In this document: in pieces, positions 4,761-51,020 of the stretch
How positions within the stretch are numbered: the stretch's first letter is position 1
Layout of the letters: each line of letters opens with the position of its first letter
DNA from: Elusimicrobiota bacterium
GTDB lineage: Bacteria > Elusimicrobiota > Elusimicrobia > UBA1565 > UBA9628
DNA length: 64,000 nt
Direction of reading: 5' to 3'
NCBI GenBank assembly: GCA_016212825.1
Contig: JACRDS010000052.1
Location: 424 to 64,423, forward strand
Position numbers and translations under genes: made by a program
Notes under the pieces: generated by a model
What the model saw: the letters and a program-made list of their open reading frames with translations, nothing else
Told to the model about the DNA's origin: nothing
Database searches by the model: none

Positions 4761-4772
4761 CCCCCTCCGCCC

Positions 4773-5627
4773 ATGAAGCGCGCCTGGCCATGCGTCTTAT
4801 CCGGCGCGATGACGGTGCTGCTCGTGGCGGGACCGCCGGAGGTCAGGGCGGTCGGGATGCCCGGAGATTCGGAGATGGGCAAGGCGATATTCGAGGGGAA
4901 TCTCAAAGCGGCGGAGCTTGCGCTGGAGCTAGGCGCGGATATCAACGGCGGGGGTGGGAACCCTCCCCTGCAGGACGCCGCGGGGCGCGGCTACATCGAC
5001 GTGGTCAGGTTCCTGCTGGATAAGGGAGCCGACGTGGATGCCGCGGGCCCGTCCGGTTCCCCGGCCCTCAGCGCGGCGGCAGGGGCCGGCCATCTGGAGG
5101 TGGTCCGGCTCCTGATCAAGCGCGGCGCCAGCGTCCGGGCGCTGGATGCCTTGGGCCGGTCGGCTCTGATGGAAGCCGCGGCCGGGGGCCACCAGGCCGT
5201 GGCGGCCTTCCTGCTGGAGCAGGGCGCCCCGACCGACGTCCTGGAGACCGGCGGGGCGACAATCCTGATGTACGCCGCCGTCTCCTGCAGCACGGGCACC
5301 GTGCGGCTCCTGCTGGAGAGGGGGGCGGATGTCAACGCGGCCTCCAACAGCGGGTGGACCGCCCTGCTCGCGGCTGCGCGGCGCGGCTGCGTGCCGGTGG
5401 CGAAGACGCTTCTGGACCGGGACGCCCTGGTCAACGCGAGCGCGGAGGACGGCAAGACGCCGCTGATCCTAGCCGCGGCCAGCGGCAAGGTCGAGCTGGT
5501 GCGGCTGCTTCTGGACAACGGGGCTGACCCTGCGGCGCGGGACCGGGACGGGGACACGGCGCTCTCCGTCGCCCAGAAGAAGGGGGACGCGGCGATCGTC
5601 AAGCTCCTGAAAGAAGCCCGGCCGTGA
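4773..5627 (+). CDS. secreted ankyrin-repeat protein
   Basis: Signal-peptide-like N-terminus followed by about 7 repeats of the G.TPL..AA..G....V..LL..GAD.NA ankyrin pattern. Confidence 0.85.
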   Translation: MKRAWPCVLSGAMTVLLVAGPPEVRAVGMPGDSEMGKAIFEGNLKAAELALELGADINGGGGNPPLQDAAGRGYIDVVRFLLDKGADVDAAGPSGSPALSAAAGAGHLEVVRLLIKRGASVRALDALGRSALMEAAAGGHQAVAAFLLEQGAPTDVLETGGATILMYAAVSCSTGTVRLLLERGADVNAASNSGWTALLAAARRGCVPVAKTLLDRDALVNASAEDGKTPLILAAASGKVELVRLLLDNGADPAARDRDGDTALSVAQKKGDAAIVKLLKEARP

Positions 5628-28418: not shown

Positions 28419-28606
28419 CGTGTTTCCCTTCGCCTGCGATAGTATAGATTCGCGAGAAAAAGAAAGGCTGGGCCCAAGGGGCAGGGGGACCTGGATTTAG
28501 GGCCCTATGCGCTTTGGGTCCTTTGCCGGACTCTCCGAGTCAGCTTAGCCCCAAAAGCCGGAATTGGCAAGGTCTTGTCCAGGGGGTGCAGGGGGTGTTT
28601 GCAGGG

Positions 28607-28665
28607 GGTGTCAGGCTTTCACGAATTTCACTGCCCATCCGTGAAGTTTGTGAAAGCCTGACACC
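28607..28665. repeat. family-1 palindromic element, copy A
   Basis: GGTGTCAGGCTTTCACGAA...TTTGTGAAAGCCTGACACC. The arms are complementary except for one G:T pair. Located between divergent genes. Confidence 0.8.
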
Positions 28666-28679
28666 GATATTTCTTTTCC

Positions 28680-28708
28680 TTGACCCTCGGCAAGACAGTG
28701 ACTATAAT
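28680..28708 (+). promoter_or_regulatory. near-consensus sigma70 promoter (TTGACC-17 nt-TATAAT) for the DUF2339 operon
   Basis: TTGACC at 28680-28685 and TATAAT at 28703-28708. AAAGGA SD and the ATG at 28727 follow. Confidence 0.7.
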
Positions 28709-28726
28709 GGCCCAAAGGACACCGAA

Positions 28727-31723
28727 ATGTCTGATACCCCCGAAGAAGCCAGGAACCGCGAAGCGATAAAGGCCCTTTGGCAGGAGATGGGTCTGCTGAG
28801 GTCTGAGATCACCTCGCTCAGAGACACCATCCGCGAGCTCTCTCAGGCTGGTCCTCGTGAGCAAGCTGGGAAGATCGTCGCCCCTCCGCCGCCCGCAACG
28901 CCTCTCCGGCAGCCGGCACAAAACCGCGTCACTTGTCCGCGCTGCAATGCCGAGTGCGACAGGGATTCATCGTTCTGCGACAGCTGCGGGACGCCATTCC
29001 TCAAGCTCCCGGCCGGCCGGCCCGAGCCGCTTCCCAAGCATGAGAAGGCGCCGGTCCCATCGGCTCCTCCGGCTCCCGTCATGGGGCGGAAGGCTCCCGC
29101 GCCCCCCGCCGCCCGGACTCTGGACATCGACTGGGAGCAGTTCATGGGGGTGAAGCTTTTCGCCTGGCTGGGGGGGTTCGCGCTCTTCCTGGGCGTGGTA
29201 TTCTTCGTGAAGTACGCCATCGACCGGGACCTCATCAGCCCTTGGATGCGCGTGCTCATCGGTTTCATCACCGGGGCCGGCGCCATCGTCGGCGGCCTTG
29301 TCCTGCGCGCGAAAGAAGAAAAATATCGGACCACGGTGGAGACCCTCTGCGCGGCCGGCGTCGCCATCCTCTACGCTGACGTCTACGCCTGCCGAGCCTT
29401 CTACGGGTTCTTCTCCACGGAGACCGCCTTCTTCTTCATGGCCCTGGTCACCGCCGCCGCCTTCCTGCTCGCGGTTCGGCTGGATTCGCGGTATGTCGCC
29501 ATCCTGGGCCTGGTCGGCGGCTTCCTGACGCCCCCCTTGCTCTCCACCGGAGTGGACCGGCCCATCGCGCTATTCTTCTACATCGCGATGCTCGACGCCG
29601 GCCTGGCCGCCGTAGCCCTCAACCGGCGCTGGGGATTCCTCATGGCCATGTCCGCCGCGGCCACCCTCCTCATGGAGGCCGCCTGGACCGCCAAGTTCTT
29701 CACGGTGGGCAAAGCCGGTCTGGCCATGGGCATCGAGCTGGGCTTCTGCGTGTTCTTCCTGGCCGCGCGCGAACTGGCGCAGAGACGGCGGGATGAGGAC
29801 CCCTGGCAGCATCGGCCGGCCGCGCTCATGGCGCTCATCTCCATGGGATTCTGCGCGCACATGCTCACGTTCAAGACGCTGGCCGCCGGGCCGGGGCTTG
29901 TCCTCACCTATCTCCTCCTGCTCAACATCCCCCTGGTCTATCTGGCCATGAAACGGGAGGACCTGGAGCCCGCCTACATCGCGGGCGGGCTCGGGACCTT
30001 CGCGCTCCTCCTCTTCTGGACCGTCGCCCATCTGAAAGCGGACCTGCTCTTGTGGGGGTTGAGCTATTTCATGGCCTTCGCCATCCTCCATGGCGCGACG
30101 CCGCCGCTGCTCCAGCAGTGGCGGCCGGGCAGGGCTCCCTTGCTCTGGGGCTACGCCGCGCCTTTGGCCATGCTCTTGCTGGTCCTGGTGAGCCTGTCGC
30201 TCCTGAGCGCGGCCTCTTTCCTGGTCTGGCCTTTCGTGCTGCTGCTGGGGCTCCTGGCCATCGCCGCGGCCGCCCTGCTGTCATCGCTGGCGGTCGCCGC
30301 GCTGGCGGTCGGCCTGGTGATGGCCTGCTTCGGCATCTGGATGTTCCGGCTCCCCGACCTCGCAGGGCTCGATCCCATCCTCCTCATCCTGGCGCTGTTC
30401 ACCTTGGTCTTCTTCGCCGCGGGACTCTTGGTCTCCCGCAAGGCTTTCTCAGCCCTGCGGCCGTCCCTGCCGGCGGCCGGAGAAGCCTTCGATCCGGCGC
30501 AGTTGCCCGCGTTGGCTGCGCTCATGCCGTTCTTCCTGTTGGCCATGGTCTGCGCCAAGCTCCCCTTGCGGGATCCTTCCGAGGTCTTCGCCTTCATGGT
30601 CCTGCTCAATGCCTTGCTGGCGGGCCTCGTGGTCTGCCGCGGCGTGCCGGCGCTGACCGGGATCATGCTCGGCGCGACGGTGTTCGTCGAGGCGGTCTGG
30701 CATCTCAACCATTTTGACCCGACTCGATTCGCCGGCCCCTTGGCTTGGTACCTGGGGTCCTTCGGCTTCTTCGCGGCCTTCCCCTTCCTGTTCTCGGGAC
30801 GGGTCAAGGGGCGTTCTCCATGGCTGGCGGCCGCCCTGTCCGGGCTGGCGCATTTCCCGCTGGTCCACCAGGCTTTCGTCGCGGCCGCGGGCAAGTCCTA
30901 TGTCGGCGTGGTGCCGGCCTTCTTCGCGCTGCCGTCTTTGCTCGGCCTGTGGGGCGTGCTGCAGTCCTTCGCCCGGGAGGACGAGAGACGCCTCGGGCTT
31001 CTGGCCGTCTTCGGAGGGGTGGGGCTCTTCTTCATCACTTTGATCGTCCCCCTGCAGTTCGACAAGGAGTGGATCACGCTGGGCTGGGCCCTGGAAGGCG
31101 CCGCCCTGGTCTGGCTCTTCCGGCGCGTGCCGCACCAGGGGCTCAAGGCCTGGGGCACGGCCCTGCTGGGCATCGCCTTCGTGAGGCTGGCCATGAACCC
31201 GGCCGTCCTGTCCTATCATGCGCGGGCGGCCACGCCCGTGTGGAACTGGTACCTTTTCGTCTACGGCGCGGTCATCGCCTGCCTCTTCTTCGCCGCCGCG
31301 CGCCTGAAGCCTCCGGAGCACGAGGTCCTGGGCTTCGCAGCGCCCCCGATCCTCGACTCCCTGGGCACGGTCCTGGCGTTCCTGCTGCTCAACATCGAGA
31401 TCGCCGACTATTTCAGCACCGGCACCGGCATCACCTTCAACTTCTCTGGGAGCTTCGGGCAGGATATGACCTATTCCCTAGGCTGGTGCGCCTTCGCCAT
31501 CGCCCTGCTGGCGGCGGGCATCCGCCGGAAGTCCTCCGGTGCGCGCCTGGCGAGTCTGGCCCTGCTCTCCGCCACCATCCTGAAGGTCTTCTTCCACGAC
31601 CTCTGGCGGCTGGGCCAGCTCTACCGCGTCGCTTCGGTGATCGGCCTGGCCGTCATCCTCATCCTGGTCTCGTTCCTCTACCAGCGCTTCATCGTGACGG
31701 ACAAGCGGGAGGTCGCCCCATGA
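28727..31723 (+). CDS. DUF2339-type giant polytopic membrane protein with N-terminal coiled coil and zinc ribbon
   Basis: CPRCNAECDRDSSFCDSCGT zinc ribbon followed by more than 20 hydrophobic helices. Start set at the ATG at 28727, downstream of the promoter rather than the TTG at 28514. Confidence 0.7.
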   Translation: MSDTPEEARNREAIKALWQEMGLLRSEITSLRDTIRELSQAGPREQAGKIVAPPPPATPLRQPAQNRVTCPRCNAECDRDSSFCDSCGTPFLKLPAGRPEPLPKHEKAPVPSAPPAPVMGRKAPAPPAARTLDIDWEQFMGVKLFAWLGGFALFLGVVFFVKYAIDRDLISPWMRVLIGFITGAGAIVGGLVLRAKEEKYRTTVETLCAAGVAILYADVYACRAFYGFFSTETAFFFMALVTAAAFLLAVRLDSRYVAILGLVGGFLTPPLLSTGVDRPIALFFYIAMLDAGLAAVALNRRWGFLMAMSAAATLLMEAAWTAKFFTVGKAGLAMGIELGFCVFFLAARELAQRRRDEDPWQHRPAALMALISMGFCAHMLTFKTLAAGPGLVLTYLLLLNIPLVYLAMKREDLEPAYIAGGLGTFALLLFWTVAHLKADLLLWGLSYFMAFAILHGATPPLLQQWRPGRAPLLWGYAAPLAMLLLVLVSLSLLSAASFLVWPFVLLLGLLAIAAAALLSSLAVAALAVGLVMACFGIWMFRLPDLAGLDPILLILALFTLVFFAAGLLVSRKAFSALRPSLPAAGEAFDPAQLPALAALMPFFLLAMVCAKLPLRDPSEVFAFMVLLNALLAGLVVCRGVPALTGIMLGATVFVEAVWHLNHFDPTRFAGPLAWYLGSFGFFAAFPFLFSGRVKGRSPWLAAALSGLAHFPLVHQAFVAAAGKSYVGVVPAFFALPSLLGLWGVLQSFAREDERRLGLLAVFGGVGLFFITLIVPLQFDKEWITLGWALEGAALVWLFRRVPHQGLKAWGTALLGIAFVRLAMNPAVLSYHARAATPVWNWYLFVYGAVIACLFFAAARLKPPEHEVLGFAAPPILDSLGTVLAFLLLNIEIADYFSTGTGITFNFSGSFGQDMTYSLGWCAFAIALLAAGIRRKSSGARLASLALLSATILKVFFHDLWRLGQLYRVASVIGLAVILILVSFLYQRFIVTDKREVAP

Positions 31724-45619: not shown

Positions 45620-45665
45620 CCAGCTGATATTATAGCCTCTCTAGGACCGTGCCGGCGGGAGAAGC

Positions 45666-45694
45666 GGCATGGGGCGATTCAAGGGCCCCATGCC
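45666..45694 (-). terminator. 10-bp perfect GC-rich hairpin after the pilin gene
   Basis: GGCATGGGGC (45666-45675) pairs with GCCCCATGCC (45685-45694), 15 nt past the stop at 45709. No U-tract. Confidence 0.5.
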
Positions 45695-45708
45695 GTCTCC
45701 CGAGTTGT

Positions 45709-45894
45709 TCAGCTGGCGCCCAACTGGTTCACGGCTCCCAGGATAAGGATACTGACCTTATCGAATATATTCGGCATGAACCTCTTCATGGCGACGCCGG
45801 AGATGAGGACGACCCCGACGACCACGCTCAGCATGAGAAGATATTCGACCGTGTTTTGGCCCTTGCGGCGGGTGAGTAAGCCTTTCCAGTACAT
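45709..45894 (-). CDS. Flp/Fap-type pilin-like protein
   Basis: 61 aa. Basic leader then G-QNTVEY-LLMLSVVVGVVLI, matching the Flp G/xxxxEY processing motif plus hydrophobic helix. GGAGG SD upstream. Confidence 0.6.
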   Translation of the reverse strand: MYWKGLLTRRKGQNTVEYLLMLSVVVGVVLISGVAMKRFMPNIFDKVSILILGAVNQLGAS

Positions 45895-45981
45895 GAGACC
45901 TCCAGAGCGGCTGTCTCGCTCGTCGACTCAGACACAGACCAGCCTGGAAAGGTTCTTGGAGAATGGTAAATTTTTGGTTAC

Positions 45982-46371
45982 TTAATGGCCCTGCCCAAGC
46001 GATCCTGCCGCGCCAGAGATCATGGTTTGAATCTGGCTGAAGAGCCCAGGCATGAACCGCTTGAGCGCTACTCCTGAGACCAATACGACGCCGACCACCA
46101 TGGCAATAGCGAGCACATACTCCAACGGGTGCAGTGGCTCGAATCGCCTGACTGCGGGCCGCAGGCGGCGGAGGGCTTTTCCCAGCAGGCTGGGGGGAAG
46201 CGGTTCGAGGGCATGCCTCCGGAAGGCGGCGCTAGCTCTCTTGAGCCGTTCCAACTCTTTGGTGCAGGCGGCGCAGGAGCCCAGATGCGCGGCGACCTGA
46301 GCCCGGCGTTCAGCCGGCAGTTCTCCGTCGAGGAAGGCGGAGAGGTCTTCTACGCTGAAATCATGCGCCAT
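45982..46371 (-). CDS. zinc-binding anti-sigma factor (zf-HC2) with Flp-pilin-like C-terminal segment
   Basis: H-x3-C-x2-C motif (HLGSCAAC) near the N-terminus. The last ~50 aa are paralogous to the pilin at 45709-45894. Start overlaps the sigma gene by 11 nt. Confidence 0.7.
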   Translation of the reverse strand: MAHDFSVEDLSAFLDGELPAERRAQVAAHLGSCAACTKELERLKRASAAFRRHALEPLPPSLLGKALRRLRPAVRRFEPLHPLEYVLAIAMVVGVVLVSGVALKRFMPGLFSQIQTMISGAAGSLGQGH

Positions 46372-46894
46372 CCATCCCTCCCTCGAGCCGCTCGGCCAAT
46401 AAGGCGCGCGCCCTCACCAGGCGCGACTTGACTGTTCCCAAAGGGATGCCCAAAGACTCCGCTATCTCGGCGTAGCTGCGGCCGTCGAGCTCGCGTAAGA
46501 CCAAGACAGCCCTTTCTTCCGGCGTCAGTTCTGCCAAGGCCGATTCGATGCGGGCCTTCAGGTCCGCGGCTTCGGCCTGGGCTTCTGGCCCCGGAATAGC
46601 TTCCGGGCAGTCGACCGGCTCGGAGGCCACTGACTCGGGGTCGTCGTCTGTCCCGAAGAACCTCAAGAAGCGCCATCTCGCCTTGGCGCGCAGGAGGTTC
46701 TTCCAGGCGTTCACGGTGATCCGGTAGACCCAGGTGCCGGGATCGGCTTCGCCGCGGAAGCCGGGCAGGCCCTGCACCGCCTTGAGCAGCGACTCCTGGG
46801 TCAGGTCCTCGGCCTCCGTGCGGTCGCCGGTCAGGCGCAGGGCCAGGTTGTAGACCATGGCCGCGTAGCGCTCGACCAGCTCTTCCGGCGTCAT
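46361..46894 (-). CDS. ECF (group IV) sigma-70 factor
   Basis: Region 2 (MVYNLALRLTGDRTEAEDLTQESLLKA) and region 4 (GRSYAEIAESLGIPLGTVKSRL). Confidence 0.9.
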   Translation of the reverse strand: MTPEELVERYAAMVYNLALRLTGDRTEAEDLTQESLLKAVQGLPGFRGEADPGTWVYRITVNAWKNLLRAKARWRFLRFFGTDDDPESVASEPVDCPEAIPGPEAQAEAADLKARIESALAELTPEERAVLVLRELDGRSYAEIAESLGIPLGTVKSRLVRARALLAERLEGGMDGA

Positions 46895-46929
46895 CTCAGA
46901 CCCGGCTGAAGGGAGGAAAGTTCTCGGGC

Positions 46930-49335: not shown

Positions 49336-49770
49336 ATGCTTGAGACGAGGCTGGGGGTCCTGATCCTGGGCGGCCTCCTGCCCCTGCTGGCCGGGTGCTC
49401 CACGGCTCCCGTTCCTTCCGAGTTCGGCGACGTCCCGGCCCCGCGCGTCCGTCCGGTGGTGAAGAAGCGCCTCAACTGCAGGGACGAGCGCTCCATACGC
49501 GACTTCAAGGATTTCACTCTCTCCGAGGTCCAGGGGGACGCGGACGAGGTGGAGCGCTGGGCCCTGTGCCTGTGCGGGGACGCCTCCCGCAGGGCCGGGG
49601 TCAACGGCATCCGGCCCCGCCCCGCGGACGGCGCCTCCGGCTTCCCTTCCTATGACCTGAGCCGTCCGGAACAGAGCCTGGCGGGCATCCGGGACTGGCT
49701 CAAGGCGCACCTGCCTCTCGATGAAGCTCAGGCCGCCAGGCTCGCCGAGTGCCTCTATGGCCGTCCCTAG
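49336..49770 (+). CDS. hypothetical lipoprotein
   Basis: LLAGC lipobox. TG-n-TAAGAT box at 49317-49325, 10 nt before the ATG. Confidence 0.55.
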   Translation: MLETRLGVLILGGLLPLLAGCSTAPVPSEFGDVPAPRVRPVVKKRLNCRDERSIRDFKDFTLSEVQGDADEVERWALCLCGDASRRAGVNGIRPRPADGASGFPSYDLSRPEQSLAGIRDWLKAHLPLDEAQAARLAECLYGRP

Positions 49771-49778
49771 GCTCCAGG

Positions 49779-51020
49779 ATGCCTGAGGGGGGTCGTTCTC
49801 CGTCCGGGCTGGCGCCCGCCATGGCCTGCATCTCCCTCTCCGCCGCCTTCCTGGTCGGCGGCTACGAGTTCGCCCGCAGCACCGTGGCCTCCCTGTTCAT
49901 CGAGGCCTTCGGCTCCGGCCCCATGCCCTACGCCATGACCCTGGTGCCCGTGCTCATGGCCGCGCTCATCTACTGCTACGGCCGCGTCCTCACCCGCCTG
50001 GGCAGCCTCTGGACCCTGCAGGCCTCTCTGGGCCTCTCGGCCGCGGCCTTCCTGGCCGGCTACGCGGCCCTGCGCACGGGCTGGAAGCCGGTCGTGGCCG
50101 TGCTCTACGTGTTCACCGAGGCCTACATCGTCATCCTGGTCGAGCAGTTCTGGTCGTTCATCAACAGCACCTTGGACCAGGCCCGCGCCAAGACCTTCAA
50201 CGGACCGATACTGGGAGGGGCCTCGGTGGGGCCCGTGCTCGCAGGCCTGGCGGTCAACCGCTACGCGGCCCGCCTGGGCTCCGAGCAGTTCGTCCTGCTG
50301 ACCGGCATGGCCCTCATCCCCGCGGCCGCCCTTTCCTTCGCCGCCTACCGGCTGGCCGGAGAGCCCCGGCCTTCGGCCGCGGAGCGCGGCGTCGGTCCAG
50401 GCCCCCTGCGCCTGCGCCTCATCCTCGAGCACAAGGTCCTGCTCTACATCGCCGGGGTCGTGGCGCTCTCCCAGTTCTTCGCGGCCGCCGCCAACCTGCG
50501 GCTCTATTCGCTGCTGGAGGCGGCCATGCCGGGCAAGGACGCGCGCAGCGCCTACCTGGGGACCTTCTGGGCCTCGGTCAACGGCCTGGCTTTCCTCATG
50601 CAGTTCGTGGCCACGCCCCTGGTCCTGCGGAGGCTGCCGCTGTCCATTATCCTGGTGGGCATACCGCTGGTGCACGTCTGCACCGCGGGACTGATGCTCG
50701 CCCATCCCAGCCTGGCCGTGGCCGCCGCGGCCCTGCTCCTGTTCAAAGGCATCGACTATTCGGTTTTCCGCGCCAGCAAGGAACTGCTCTACATCCCCCT
50801 GCCCTTCGACGCGCGCTACCGCGCCAAGCAGGTGGTGGACGCCTTCAACTACCGCTTCTCCAAGGGCCTGGCCGCGGGCGGGATTTCCTTGGCCAAGGGC
50901 CTGGGTGGCGTCCTGCCCGGCTGGGCCTATCCGGCCATCAGCCTGGCCGCGGCCGGGGCCTGGGTCGCTGCGGCCGTGCCCCTGGCCAGGAAGGCCAGAG
51001 AAGAGTCGGAGAGGAAGTGA
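49779..51020 (+). CDS. 12-TM transporter, TLC (ATP/ADP or NAD exchanger)-like MFS-type
   Basis: About 12 helices. EAYIVILVEQFWSFINS resembles the TLC-family FW.FAN segment. The assignment is tentative. Confidence 0.45.
   Translation: MPEGGRSPSGLAPAMACISLSAAFLVGGYEFARSTVASLFIEAFGSGPMPYAMTLVPVLMAALIYCYGRVLTRLGSLWTLQASLGLSAAAFLAGYAALRTGWKPVVAVLYVFTEAYIVILVEQFWSFINSTLDQARAKTFNGPILGGASVGPVLAGLAVNRYAARLGSEQFVLLTGMALIPAAALSFAAYRLAGEPRPSAAERGVGPGPLRLRLILEHKVLLYIAGVVALSQFFAAAANLRLYSLLEAAMPGKDARSAYLGTFWASVNGLAFLMQFVATPLVLRRLPLSIILVGIPLVHVCTAGLMLAHPSLAVAAAALLLFKGIDYSVFRASKELLYIPLPFDARYRAKQVVDAFNYRFSKGLAAGGISLAKGLGGVLPGWAYPAISLAAAGAWVAAAVPLARKAREESERK

Follow-up and report, generated by a model that had tools for sequence, protein, structure and literature searches.

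We analysed a 64-kb stretch of DNA from an Elusimicrobiota metagenome-assembled genome (MAG; locus-tag prefix HY926), here called the window, and identified on its minus strand an operon for an extracytoplasmic function (ECF) sigma factor, a zinc-binding anti-sigma factor and a small prepilin (pilin B), in which the anti-sigma factor has a pilin paralogue as its membrane-spanning and periplasmic part. The tail of this module matches the major pilin of a Tad-type locus elsewhere in the same MAG (pilin A), and each of the further anti-sigma tails that could be paired with a pilin likewise matches the Tad pilin of its own genome. We propose, with a probability of roughly 0.55, that this pilin-mimicking anti-sigma factor senses the major Tad pilin A and controls the alternative pilin B. 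The proposal starts from direct observations: the homology, the co-variation with pilin A, a conservation pattern that differs by region, conserved promoter motifs and the Tad context of pilin A.

Homology to a mature pilin extends over the last ~47 residues of the anti-sigma factor, as a preliminary description of this DNA had claimed from a hand alignment. BLASTP aligned the anti-sigma factor to pilin B with 24/46 identities (52%), 78% positives and an E value of 2e-17, and hhalign of 15 fusions against 30 pilins gave 99.8% and an E value of 1.8e-27, with residues 83-129 of the fusion aligned to 26-72 of the pilin. The similarity goes beyond generic transmembrane (TM) hydrophobicity, because shuffles that kept the leader, TM and tail blocks of the pilin never reached the observed score (0 of 5000; z=20.3, range given 20-27); block-preserving shuffles of the periplasmic tail alone gave z=14. 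At the DNA level, where similarity had been reported as well, the anti-sigma tail resembles the adjacent pilin gene weakly (54% identity overall, 37% at third codon positions). A hidden Markov model of the mature pilin, run over all open reading frames (ORFs) of 163 fetched loci and the window, found the module in prepilins and zf-HC2 fusions alone. The pilin module of the fusion lies C-terminal to a cytoplasmic domain and has an N-in/C-out topology, and its N-terminal processing is therefore impossible.

The fusion architecture recurs in many genomes and metagenomes. We identified 15 relatives by a word-index search, about 45 clusters at 50% identity among the best 150 matches of an exhaustive profile search (105-135 aa, with end-to-end coverage), and one more full-length fusion in a scan of metagenome contigs (L084; L-numbers denote fetched relative loci and P-numbers relative proteins). 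All named members belong to the Elusimicrobia or to an unclassified bacterium. An assembly artefact was rejected on the strength of these dozens of distinct sequences, with their consistent length and distinct N-half.

Exact look-ups of the window anti-sigma factor and the adjacent pilin gave no record, and their context was taken from relatives. Searching for homologues of the anti-sigma factor brought up 72-aa pilins with ~80% identity to its C-terminal third, and P0016 (HY926_02615), from the same MAG, is identical to it over 29 residues, G100 to G128 (GVALKRFMPGLFSQIQTMISGAAGSLGQG). Judged by sequence, the closest relative of the anti-sigma tail is this Tad-locus pilin A elsewhere in the MAG, and not the adjacent pilin B. 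The idea of pilin-coupled signalling, raised in the preliminary description, thus survives in its core, a pilin-paralogue module, with the Tad-locus pilin in place of the adjacent one as the relevant pilin.

Pilus genes, which the preliminary description had proposed to look for elsewhere in the genome, were found beside pilin A on contigs that carry it. The exact P0016 pilin heads a pilin-TadE-RcpC-secretin locus on its contigs, and the orthologous Tad locus of another MAG (L082) is complete, with a TadZ/TadA-type ATPase, TadB, TadC (two T2SSF platform genes) and a TPR protein in addition. Pilin A is therefore linked to a Tad machine, having TadE, RcpC, a secretin, a T2SSE ATPase and two T2SSF genes downstream; no pilus genes lie within 20 kb of pilin B. 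Tad systems in Elusimicrobia have been noted before (Denise et al. 2019, PMC6668835). Directly ahead of the major pilin, Tad loci also have a second Flp-like gene that is unrelated to it (60-62 aa, ...GQAAVEYILTT...KKILTTYY; L003:725-913; L014:5794-5976; L018:5685-5867; L171:3148-3333). This is itself preceded by an unannotated gene of 322-328 aa, whose product in L018 has a hydrophobic, signal-peptide-like N-terminus.

We compared anti-sigma tails and pilins genome by genome, linking pairs through locus-tag prefix, assembly accession or contig accession prefix. In five genome-linked pairs, covering two pilin tail subfamilies, each anti-sigma tail matches the Tad pilin of its own genome. The HY926 pair has SQIQTMISGAAGSLGQGH in the anti-sigma factor and SQIQTMISGAAGSLGQGN in pilin A, and the pair from GCA_964650655.1 (P0003 and P0016) shares this core and ends in GSLGQGQ and GSLGQGN, respectively. 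The tails are SSIQQMISGAATSLGQGK and SSIQQMISGAATSLGQGN in GCA_026388095.1, and in CAZEAE01 SQIQGMISGAANEMGK is found in both proteins. In GCA_004322435.1, the fusion tail GKMFKPQISGIFNQVMGMISGAASTVGSGN and the Tad-locus prepilin tail GKMFKPQISGIFNQIMGMISGAASTVGSGN agree at 29/30 positions.

Proportions of non-synonymous (pN) and synonymous (pS) differences were obtained as Nei-Gojobori counts over ~30 codons. For the pairs other than that of GCA_004322435.1, anti-sigma tails differed from the pilin A of their own genome by a pN of 0.028-0.073 (pS 0.54-0.73), against 0.12-0.25 for the pilin A of other genomes (pS 0.43-0.67) and 0.135-0.24 among the anti-sigma tails of different genomes (pS 0.47-0.63). 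When three main-subfamily genomes were compared all against all (3x3), with the pilin DNA of an orthologue (L001) in the HY926 row (pS 0.73), pN was 0.03-0.07 within genomes and 0.12-0.25 between them, with a pS of 0.57-0.73. The anti-sigma tails are nearer to their own pilin A than to orthologous anti-sigma tails. Strictly same-assembly DNA pairs (n=4) gave a pN of 0.03-0.08 and a pS of 0.36-0.66, including the GCA_004322435.1 pair, in which 29/32 residues are identical over the last 32 codons (pN 0.081, pS 0.36). As synonymous sites are near saturation and pN is low, there has been no recent homogenisation of the DNA, and the protein identity is held by selection.

The exhaustive profile search also brought up a fusion subfamily with a variant tail, (L/M)FKPQIxG(V/I)FNQ(I/V)MGM(I/V)SGAAS(T/S)VGSG (FKPQI..FNQIMGMISGAAS). 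If the tails copy their cognate pilin, free prepilins with the variant tail are expected, and these were found as predicted, one of them in the same genome as a variant fusion and in a Tad locus (GCA_004322435.1). The two tail subfamilies are very unlike (KRFMPGLFSQIQ... against KMFKPQISGIFNQ...; also KRFMPGLFSQIQTMISGAAGSLG against KMFKPQISGIFNQIMGMISGAASTVG).

The conservation pattern of the fusions is inverted relative to that of the free pilins. For the processing site together with the helix N-half, mean pairwise identity is 0.93 in free pilins and 0.39 in fusions, whereas over the tail it is 0.57-0.67 in free pilins and 0.76 in fusions; the anti-sigma domain of the fusions stands at 0.54, making the periplasmic tail their most conserved part. 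The motif RKG/QNTVEYLLML.VVVGVVL is invariant in 30 free pilins, which have the features of prepilins, and the anti-sigma module does not: G(-1) is kept in no fusion among the 15 relatives, and E5 is replaced in many (VGY, LVY, LEW and others). The determinants of prepilin-peptidase cleavage and polymerisation have thus been freed from constraint in the fusions, with the periplasmic face retained. In the preliminary description, the fusion had been said to lose the cleavage-site glycine and to keep the conserved EY; the first point applies across the family, and the second does not extend to many relatives. Cleavage of the anti-sigma factor by the prepilin peptidase was rejected, as the site is absent across the family, and the suggested coupling to this enzyme is disfavoured by the same losses. 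We favour instead a coupling that would run through the periplasmic tail.

The features of the locus are collected in Table 1. The ORF coordinates, the 11-nt overlap, the HLGSCAAC motif and the RRKG/QNTVEY leader given in the preliminary description are exact, and its hairpin at 45666-45694 is real, forming the inner stem of the downstream hairpin (-37 kcal/mol, z -4.3).

Table 1. Features of the sigma operon and its surroundings in the window.
Feature	Coordinates	Strand	Remarks
ECF-type promoter motif, sigma-proximal copy	46896..46923	-	GAGAACTT, 17 nt, GGTCTGA; ends 1 nt before the sigma ATG; putative
Sigma-70 family sigma factor, ECF (group 4), 177 aa	46361..46894	-	Sigma70_r2, Sigma70_r4_2, TIGR02937
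Anti-sigma factor, 129 aa	46371-45982	-	ORF overlaps the sigma gene by 11 nt
Anti-sigma residues 1-70	46162..46371	-	Cytoplasmic class-I domain with zinc-binding motif; zf-HC2 4.5e-10
Anti-sigma residues 83-100	46072..46125	-	N-half of the pilin-derived TM helix, LEYVLAIAMVVGVVLVSG; cleavage site lost, sequence relaxed
Anti-sigma residues 101-129 and stop	45982..46071	-	Periplasmic pilin tail, VALKRFMPGLFSQIQTMISGAAGSLGQGH; copy of the tail of the major Tad pilin
ECF-type promoter motif, second copy	45928..45955	-	AAGAACCTT, 15 nt, GTGTCTGA; in the spacer between anti-sigma and pilin B genes; putative
Short hairpin	45905..45921	-	Between the predicted -10 and the Shine-Dalgarno of pilin B; RNAalifold over 8 loci, 6 pairs, 3 compensatory
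Prepilin of the sigma operon (pilin B), 61 aa	45709..45894	-	RKG/QNTVEY site, basic leader, hydrophobic helix
GC-rich hairpin 3' of the pilin B gene	45657..45701	-	Minimum free energy -37 kcal/mol, z -4.26; 0/200 shuffles as stable

The sigma factor matches Sigma70_r2 over residues 6-73 (3.5e-18) and Sigma70_r4_2 over 115-166 (6.2e-20) in Pfam, and the NCBIfam family sigma70-ECF TIGR02937 at 7e-34. Neither a region 1 nor a region 3 match was found in Pfam, nor an equivalog at cut-off in NCBIfam, and sigma-2 and sigma-4 are its sole domains, as in the ECF group. Its pairing with the anti-sigma gene is kept in all related loci. In the anti-sigma factor, the expected zf-HC2 domain was matched, and the ligand set H29-x3-C33-x2-C36 and H3 is invariant in 15 relatives. 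A profile of the anti-sigma family, searched against the PDB, matched the cytoplasmic domain of RsiW (5wuq, 6.3e-5), DdvA (1.4e-4), RsrA (4e-3) and RslA (0.036), so that by profile comparison its N-domain is nearest to RsiW among solved structures. The anti-sigma factor is predicted to bind and inhibit the sigma factor. An AF2 model of the protein (pLDDT, the predicted local distance difference test score, 72) places helices at 7-15, 20-32, 34-54 and 60-70 in the N-domain and a TM helix at 82-106; after a break at MPG comes a helix of the tail, at 110-124. GC content at third codon positions in the three-gene operon (45709-46894) is markedly below that of the flanks (sigma 0.84, anti-sigma 0.71 and pilin 0.79, against 0.92-0.96).

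Pilin B is separated from the anti-sigma gene by a spacer of 87 nt. The preliminary description had called it a Flp-type pilin, to be checked against Flp_Fap (PF04964), and this family is not matched: the window pilin has no match to it at E<=10, nor has any of 30 relatives at E<=0.01. The matches are instead to Class_IIIsignal (PF04021) and Flp1_like (PF16982), both matched by 30/30 pilin relatives at E<=0.01 (best E 2.4e-6), and pilin B itself scores just below their cut-offs (E 1e-4, 22.6 bits against 23.7, and E 6e-4, 19.6 bits against 33.5, respectively). A PDB profile search with the pilin gave chance-level matches to photosystem II PsbY alone (E 0.13). The N-terminal 30 residues of pilin B are identical to those of Tad pilins, while its tail is fast-evolving (pN 0.30-0.53 between orthologues), and in 9/9 loci with downstream sequence the next gene after the fusion encodes such a small pilin. 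The GC-rich hairpin behind the gene lacks a T-run or U-tract, and a consensus terminator scan makes no call there; it is probably a transcript end without a U-tract.

We identified a conserved ECF-type motif, AGAAC(T/C)T, 15-16 nt, G(G/T)GTCTGA, before both the sigma and the pilin B genes. The pattern GAAC-N16-21-GTCTGA has exactly two matches in the window, both at the predicted places. Both copies are kept in L006, L007, L008 and L164, with the sigma-proximal copy of L008 lying inside the 3' end of an unrelated upstream gene, and the spacer copy is present in every locus with spacer sequence (L006, L007, L008, L084, L164/165 and L166). A deep-branching member (L168/169) has the spacer variant GAGAACTT, N15, GTGTCCGT, and a variant subfamily (L170) has GAACAAA, 13-14 nt, T(T)GTCCAAGCTC at both positions, as GAACAAA, N14, TTGTCC next to the sigma gene and GAGAACAAA, N14, TGTCC in the spacer. 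The motif co-diverges with the sigma subfamily, as expected of a cognate ECF promoter, and both copies are putative promoters.

In the window and in L006, L007, L008, L164 and L170, the sigma-proximal motif reaches to within 0-1 nt of the sigma start codon, and in L170 it overlaps the annotated TTG; the sigma N-terminus is conserved as protein. This position could reflect a leaderless mRNA, an odd spacing, or a transcript of the anti-sigma and pilin genes alone. In the spacer, the short hairpin begins 5-6 nt after the predicted -10 and is possibly a 5'-terminal stem-loop of the sigma-dependent transcript, for which the evidence is modest. An ATTTACC element (within 45957-45981), ~12 nt upstream of the -35-like GAAC, is found in the window, L006, L007 and L084, although not in L008, and may be an extra regulatory site.

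Pilin B looks like an output of the sigma factor because the conserved ECF-type promoter precedes it, and the visible regulon would comprise the sigma operon itself and pilin B. A simple feedback in which the sigma factor drives the major pilin A was rejected, as the ECF motif is absent upstream of Tad pilin operons, where we found instead a near-consensus promoter of the sigma-70 type, TTGACA-N17-TACACT. Only 2 nt separate this promoter (L001:~920-974; L014; L018) from the ATG annotated for the first Flp gene, so that the transcript may be leaderless or the start misannotated.

The neighbours of the module in the window are housekeeping genes. The fprA-rubredoxin genes lie directly upstream of the sigma gene in the window, L006, L007 and L164, and the same three-gene module stands in unrelated neighbourhoods, without fprA-rubredoxin, in L008 and L170. 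In L170 (GCA_004322435.1) the order is sigma factor, fusion and small Flp1_like pilin, with glyoxylate-shunt genes as neighbours. A cassette for Rce1-like/CPBP intramembrane proteases follows the small pilin in L007 (4661-6296) and L166 (853-2527), as CPBP1, a ~54-aa TM protein and CPBP2, and in L006 (11000-12030), as a small TM protein and CPBP2; it was not found in the window, L164/165, L008 or L170. The anti-sigma factor or the pilin could be the substrate of an accessory protease encoded by this cassette.

We additionally identified long-form relatives (P0155, P0162, P0187 and P0223; 317-390 aa), in which the anti-sigma domain, TM helix and a QGMISGAAG pilin-like tail are followed by a C-terminal region of ~190-260 residues without a Pfam match. 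In P0165 and P0184, what comes after the tail is instead another TM helix, the second, and an RRRR terminus. Elsewhere in the window are genes for a CHASE2-adenylate/guanylate cyclase (2-1792), an ankyrin-repeat protein (4761-5624), a ~1090-aa DUF2339 membrane protein (28448-31720) and a protein with a partial match to the TLC ATP/ADP-transporter family (5e-8; 49725-51017).

We propose that the ECF sigma factor, the single-pass anti-sigma factor and the alternative prepilin form a regulatory module, in which the anti-sigma TM helix and ~25-residue periplasmic tail would derive from the major Tad pilin A, the tail being kept identical to it. The zinc-binding N-domain would tether the sigma factor at the membrane, and the tail would let the anti-sigma factor resemble, on the periplasmic side, the mature pilin A embedded in the membrane. 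The anti-sigma factor may then pair with pilin A, or be bound by whatever binds the pilin A tail; exact identity would perhaps best suit a homotypic pairing, in which the interface would be self-complementary and a change in the pilin would have to be mirrored in the mimic. Occupancy would be set by the inner-membrane pilin pool and by pilus assembly and retraction, and would decide the stability of the anti-sigma factor. In the version that we prefer, an unpartnered anti-sigma factor would be a direct substrate of intramembrane proteolysis, from which the partner would shield it. Direct cleavage is favoured because the ~25-residue periplasmic stub is as short as that of a site-1-trimmed anti-sigma factor, a comparison drawn from RseA/RseP. 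Depletion of pilin A would release the sigma factor, which would transcribe its own operon and pilin B from the two cognate promoters. Pilin B, keeping the processing site and the assembly helix, would show a different surface tail.

Several points weigh against this proposal. Homotypic pairing and recognition by a third factor would account equally well for the tail identity. The sigma-proximal motif abuts the start codon, so that a canonical ECF start would fall inside the sigma ORF, which makes autoregulation uncertain. A Pfam survey of the window, which covers the window alone, found no Tad or pilus gene, no peptidase A24 (prepilin peptidase) and no site-2 protease. The codon comparisons concern ~30 codons per pair with pS near saturation, at which an old conversion limited to the tail and co-evolution by point mutation would be indistinguishable. 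The pairs are linked by MAG binning, although five independent assemblies agree; the HY926 pair stands at the protein level, its DNA comparison having used the pilin gene of an orthologue. Finally, the organisms that carry the module are uncultivated.

The co-variation would fit equally if the anti-sigma tail, instead of binding pilin A, shared with it a third-party recogniser in the periplasm or the membrane, whether a protease, a chaperone or a Tad component (TadE, RcpC or TadB/C). Pilin A and the anti-sigma factor would compete for this recogniser, with the pilin load setting the rate of anti-sigma cleavage as in classical regulated intramembrane proteolysis, an explanation that we consider possible if somewhat unlikely. 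It would suit the nearness of the N-domain to RsiW, an anti-sigma factor under regulated intramembrane proteolysis, the CPBP genes found directly after the small pilin in 3 of about 8 loci, and the ability of a pilin C-terminus to trigger AlgW-MucA-AlgU in Pseudomonas (PMC3684759). However, the loci without the CPBP cassette include the window, no protease is consistently linked to the module, and near-exact identity exceeds the need of most protease recognition, for which a short degron is enough.

We regard as unlikely a further arrangement, in which the mimic is incorporated or handled at the pilus assembly site, and sigma release is a mechanical or occupancy readout of pilus extension and retraction, equivalent for the pilus to the FlgM checkpoint, that switches to a pilin with a different surface. 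Were this true, the circuit would oblige mimic and pilin to co-evolve, and additional periplasmic inputs would come in with the long-form relatives.

A checkpoint resembling that of FlgM, in which the Tad machine pulls or extracts the pilin module of the anti-sigma factor as a pseudo-substrate, so that an active machine frees the sigma factor and the late pilin B is made, seems doubtful. The module is a near-complete mature pilin with the same N-in/C-out topology, and pilin B, the apparent output, retains all the assembly determinants. Yet G(-1), Q1, E5-Y6 and LLML.VVVGVVL, invariant in the 30 free pilins, are lost or variable in the fusions, and an uncleaved cytoplasmic domain of 80 residues would block canonical extraction. 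Extraction by a Tad machine had been suggested for this locus from the outset, and it is this canonical form that is weakened by the relaxed N-half of the helix.

Still less credible is that the pilin part is an inert anchor acquired by duplication, the true input being cytoplasmic (thiol or zinc at HxxxCxxC, or other) and perhaps linked to fprA-rubredoxin. The invariance of H3/H29/C33/C36, the redox genes directly upstream in the four loci named above and the redox-switch function of RsrA-type relatives would agree with this. The tail, however, is more conserved than the anti-sigma domain (0.76 against 0.54) and tracks the cognate pilin in two subfamilies, which is not expected of an inert anchor, and most zf-HC2 domains bind zinc structurally. 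Of the redox control suggested in the preliminary description, the fprA-rubredoxin link is not supported by synteny, given L008 and L170, and the invariant zinc ligands would be compatible with a thiol or zinc input.

Recurrent gene conversion between the paralogues, giving a tail identity without functional meaning, is very improbable: the paralogues of one genome do resemble each other more closely than orthologues do, a pattern classically left by concerted evolution, but the within-genome pS of the four same-assembly pairs is high with almost no non-synonymous change, so that purifying selection has held the tail identity since any conversion, the genes are on different contigs, and conversion would have restored the diverged N-half and cleavage site.

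The components are of known kinds, namely an ECF sigma factor, a class-I zinc-binding anti-sigma domain and Tad-type pilins, and it is the lock-step between the sequences of sensor and ligand that stands out. The RsiW-SigW (Bacillus subtilis), RslA, RsrA, ChrR and DdvA pairs share with this module an operon of overlapping sigma and anti-sigma genes, an N-terminal zf-HC2 domain, a single TM helix and, here putative, a cognate promoter motif of the AAC/GTC type. In contrast to those pairs, the extracytoplasmic part is here no stress-sensing or protease-gated domain but a ~25-residue replica of a pilin tail that co-varies with a distant structural gene, and no PrsW-type or DegS-type partner was identified. 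The free pilins (60-75 aa, with a G/QNTVEY site and matches to Class_IIIsignal and Flp1_like) resemble Tad/Flp (type IVc) pilins and the archaeal-type pilins with class III signal peptides, but differ in having no Flp_Fap PF04964 match, and the fusion module follows a cytoplasmic domain.

Sensing of the inner-membrane pilin pool by histidine kinases has been described for PilA-PleC in Caulobacter, with a Tad-type pilin, and PilA-PilS in Pseudomonas aeruginosa, in both of which the kinase binds the conserved hydrophobic N-terminal segment of the pilin (PMC7196804). Those systems are alike in that the state of the pilus is read from the inner-membrane pilin by a membrane-embedded regulator, and the Caulobacter pilin is likewise a short Tad/type IVc pilin. 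PleC and PilS are, however, unrelated to pilins, whereas the sensor here is an anti-sigma factor that is a pilin paralogue, and the pilin segment that they bind is the part that has drifted in the fusion (0.39, the least conserved of the module), the periplasmic tail being conserved instead. Our regulator is thus not of the PilS/PleC type, although it may work like those sensors.

In the flagellar checkpoint of sigma28, FlgM is a soluble protein that leaves the cell through the type III apparatus of the flagellum. The likeness is that the fate of the anti-sigma factor may depend on an apparatus whose subunit genes the sigma factor controls; the present anti-sigma factor differs in being membrane-anchored and in lacking the determinants of pilin processing and assembly. 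In P. aeruginosa PAO579, a truncated PilA activates AlgW-MucA-AlgU (PMC3684759), and a pilin C-terminus similarly feeds the proteolytic cascade of an ECF sigma/anti-sigma pair. That case, however, concerns a mutant pilin in which a C-terminal motif able to activate the protease has become exposed by chance, and not an evolved anti-sigma factor with a pilin module. A full-text literature search found no anti-sigma factor built from a pilin, in line with the preliminary description, which suggests that the coupling of gene expression to pilus state by such mimicry was previously undescribed.

Few bacterial signalling systems are as abundant as ECF sigma/anti-sigma pairs, and the input of most groups is unknown. 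In the fusion family the input is readable from the sequence, as the sensor copies a defined structural protein and co-varies with it. The existence of two tail subfamilies lends itself to a specificity swap. If our proposal is true, the module would be a natural case of a regulator in sequence lock-step with its ligand, and a candidate circuit for switching between pilins with a common assembly helix and a different surface. It would also constitute a third, evolutionarily independent route to reading the inner-membrane pilin pool, beside PilS and PleC, that works by mimicry and not through a receptor.

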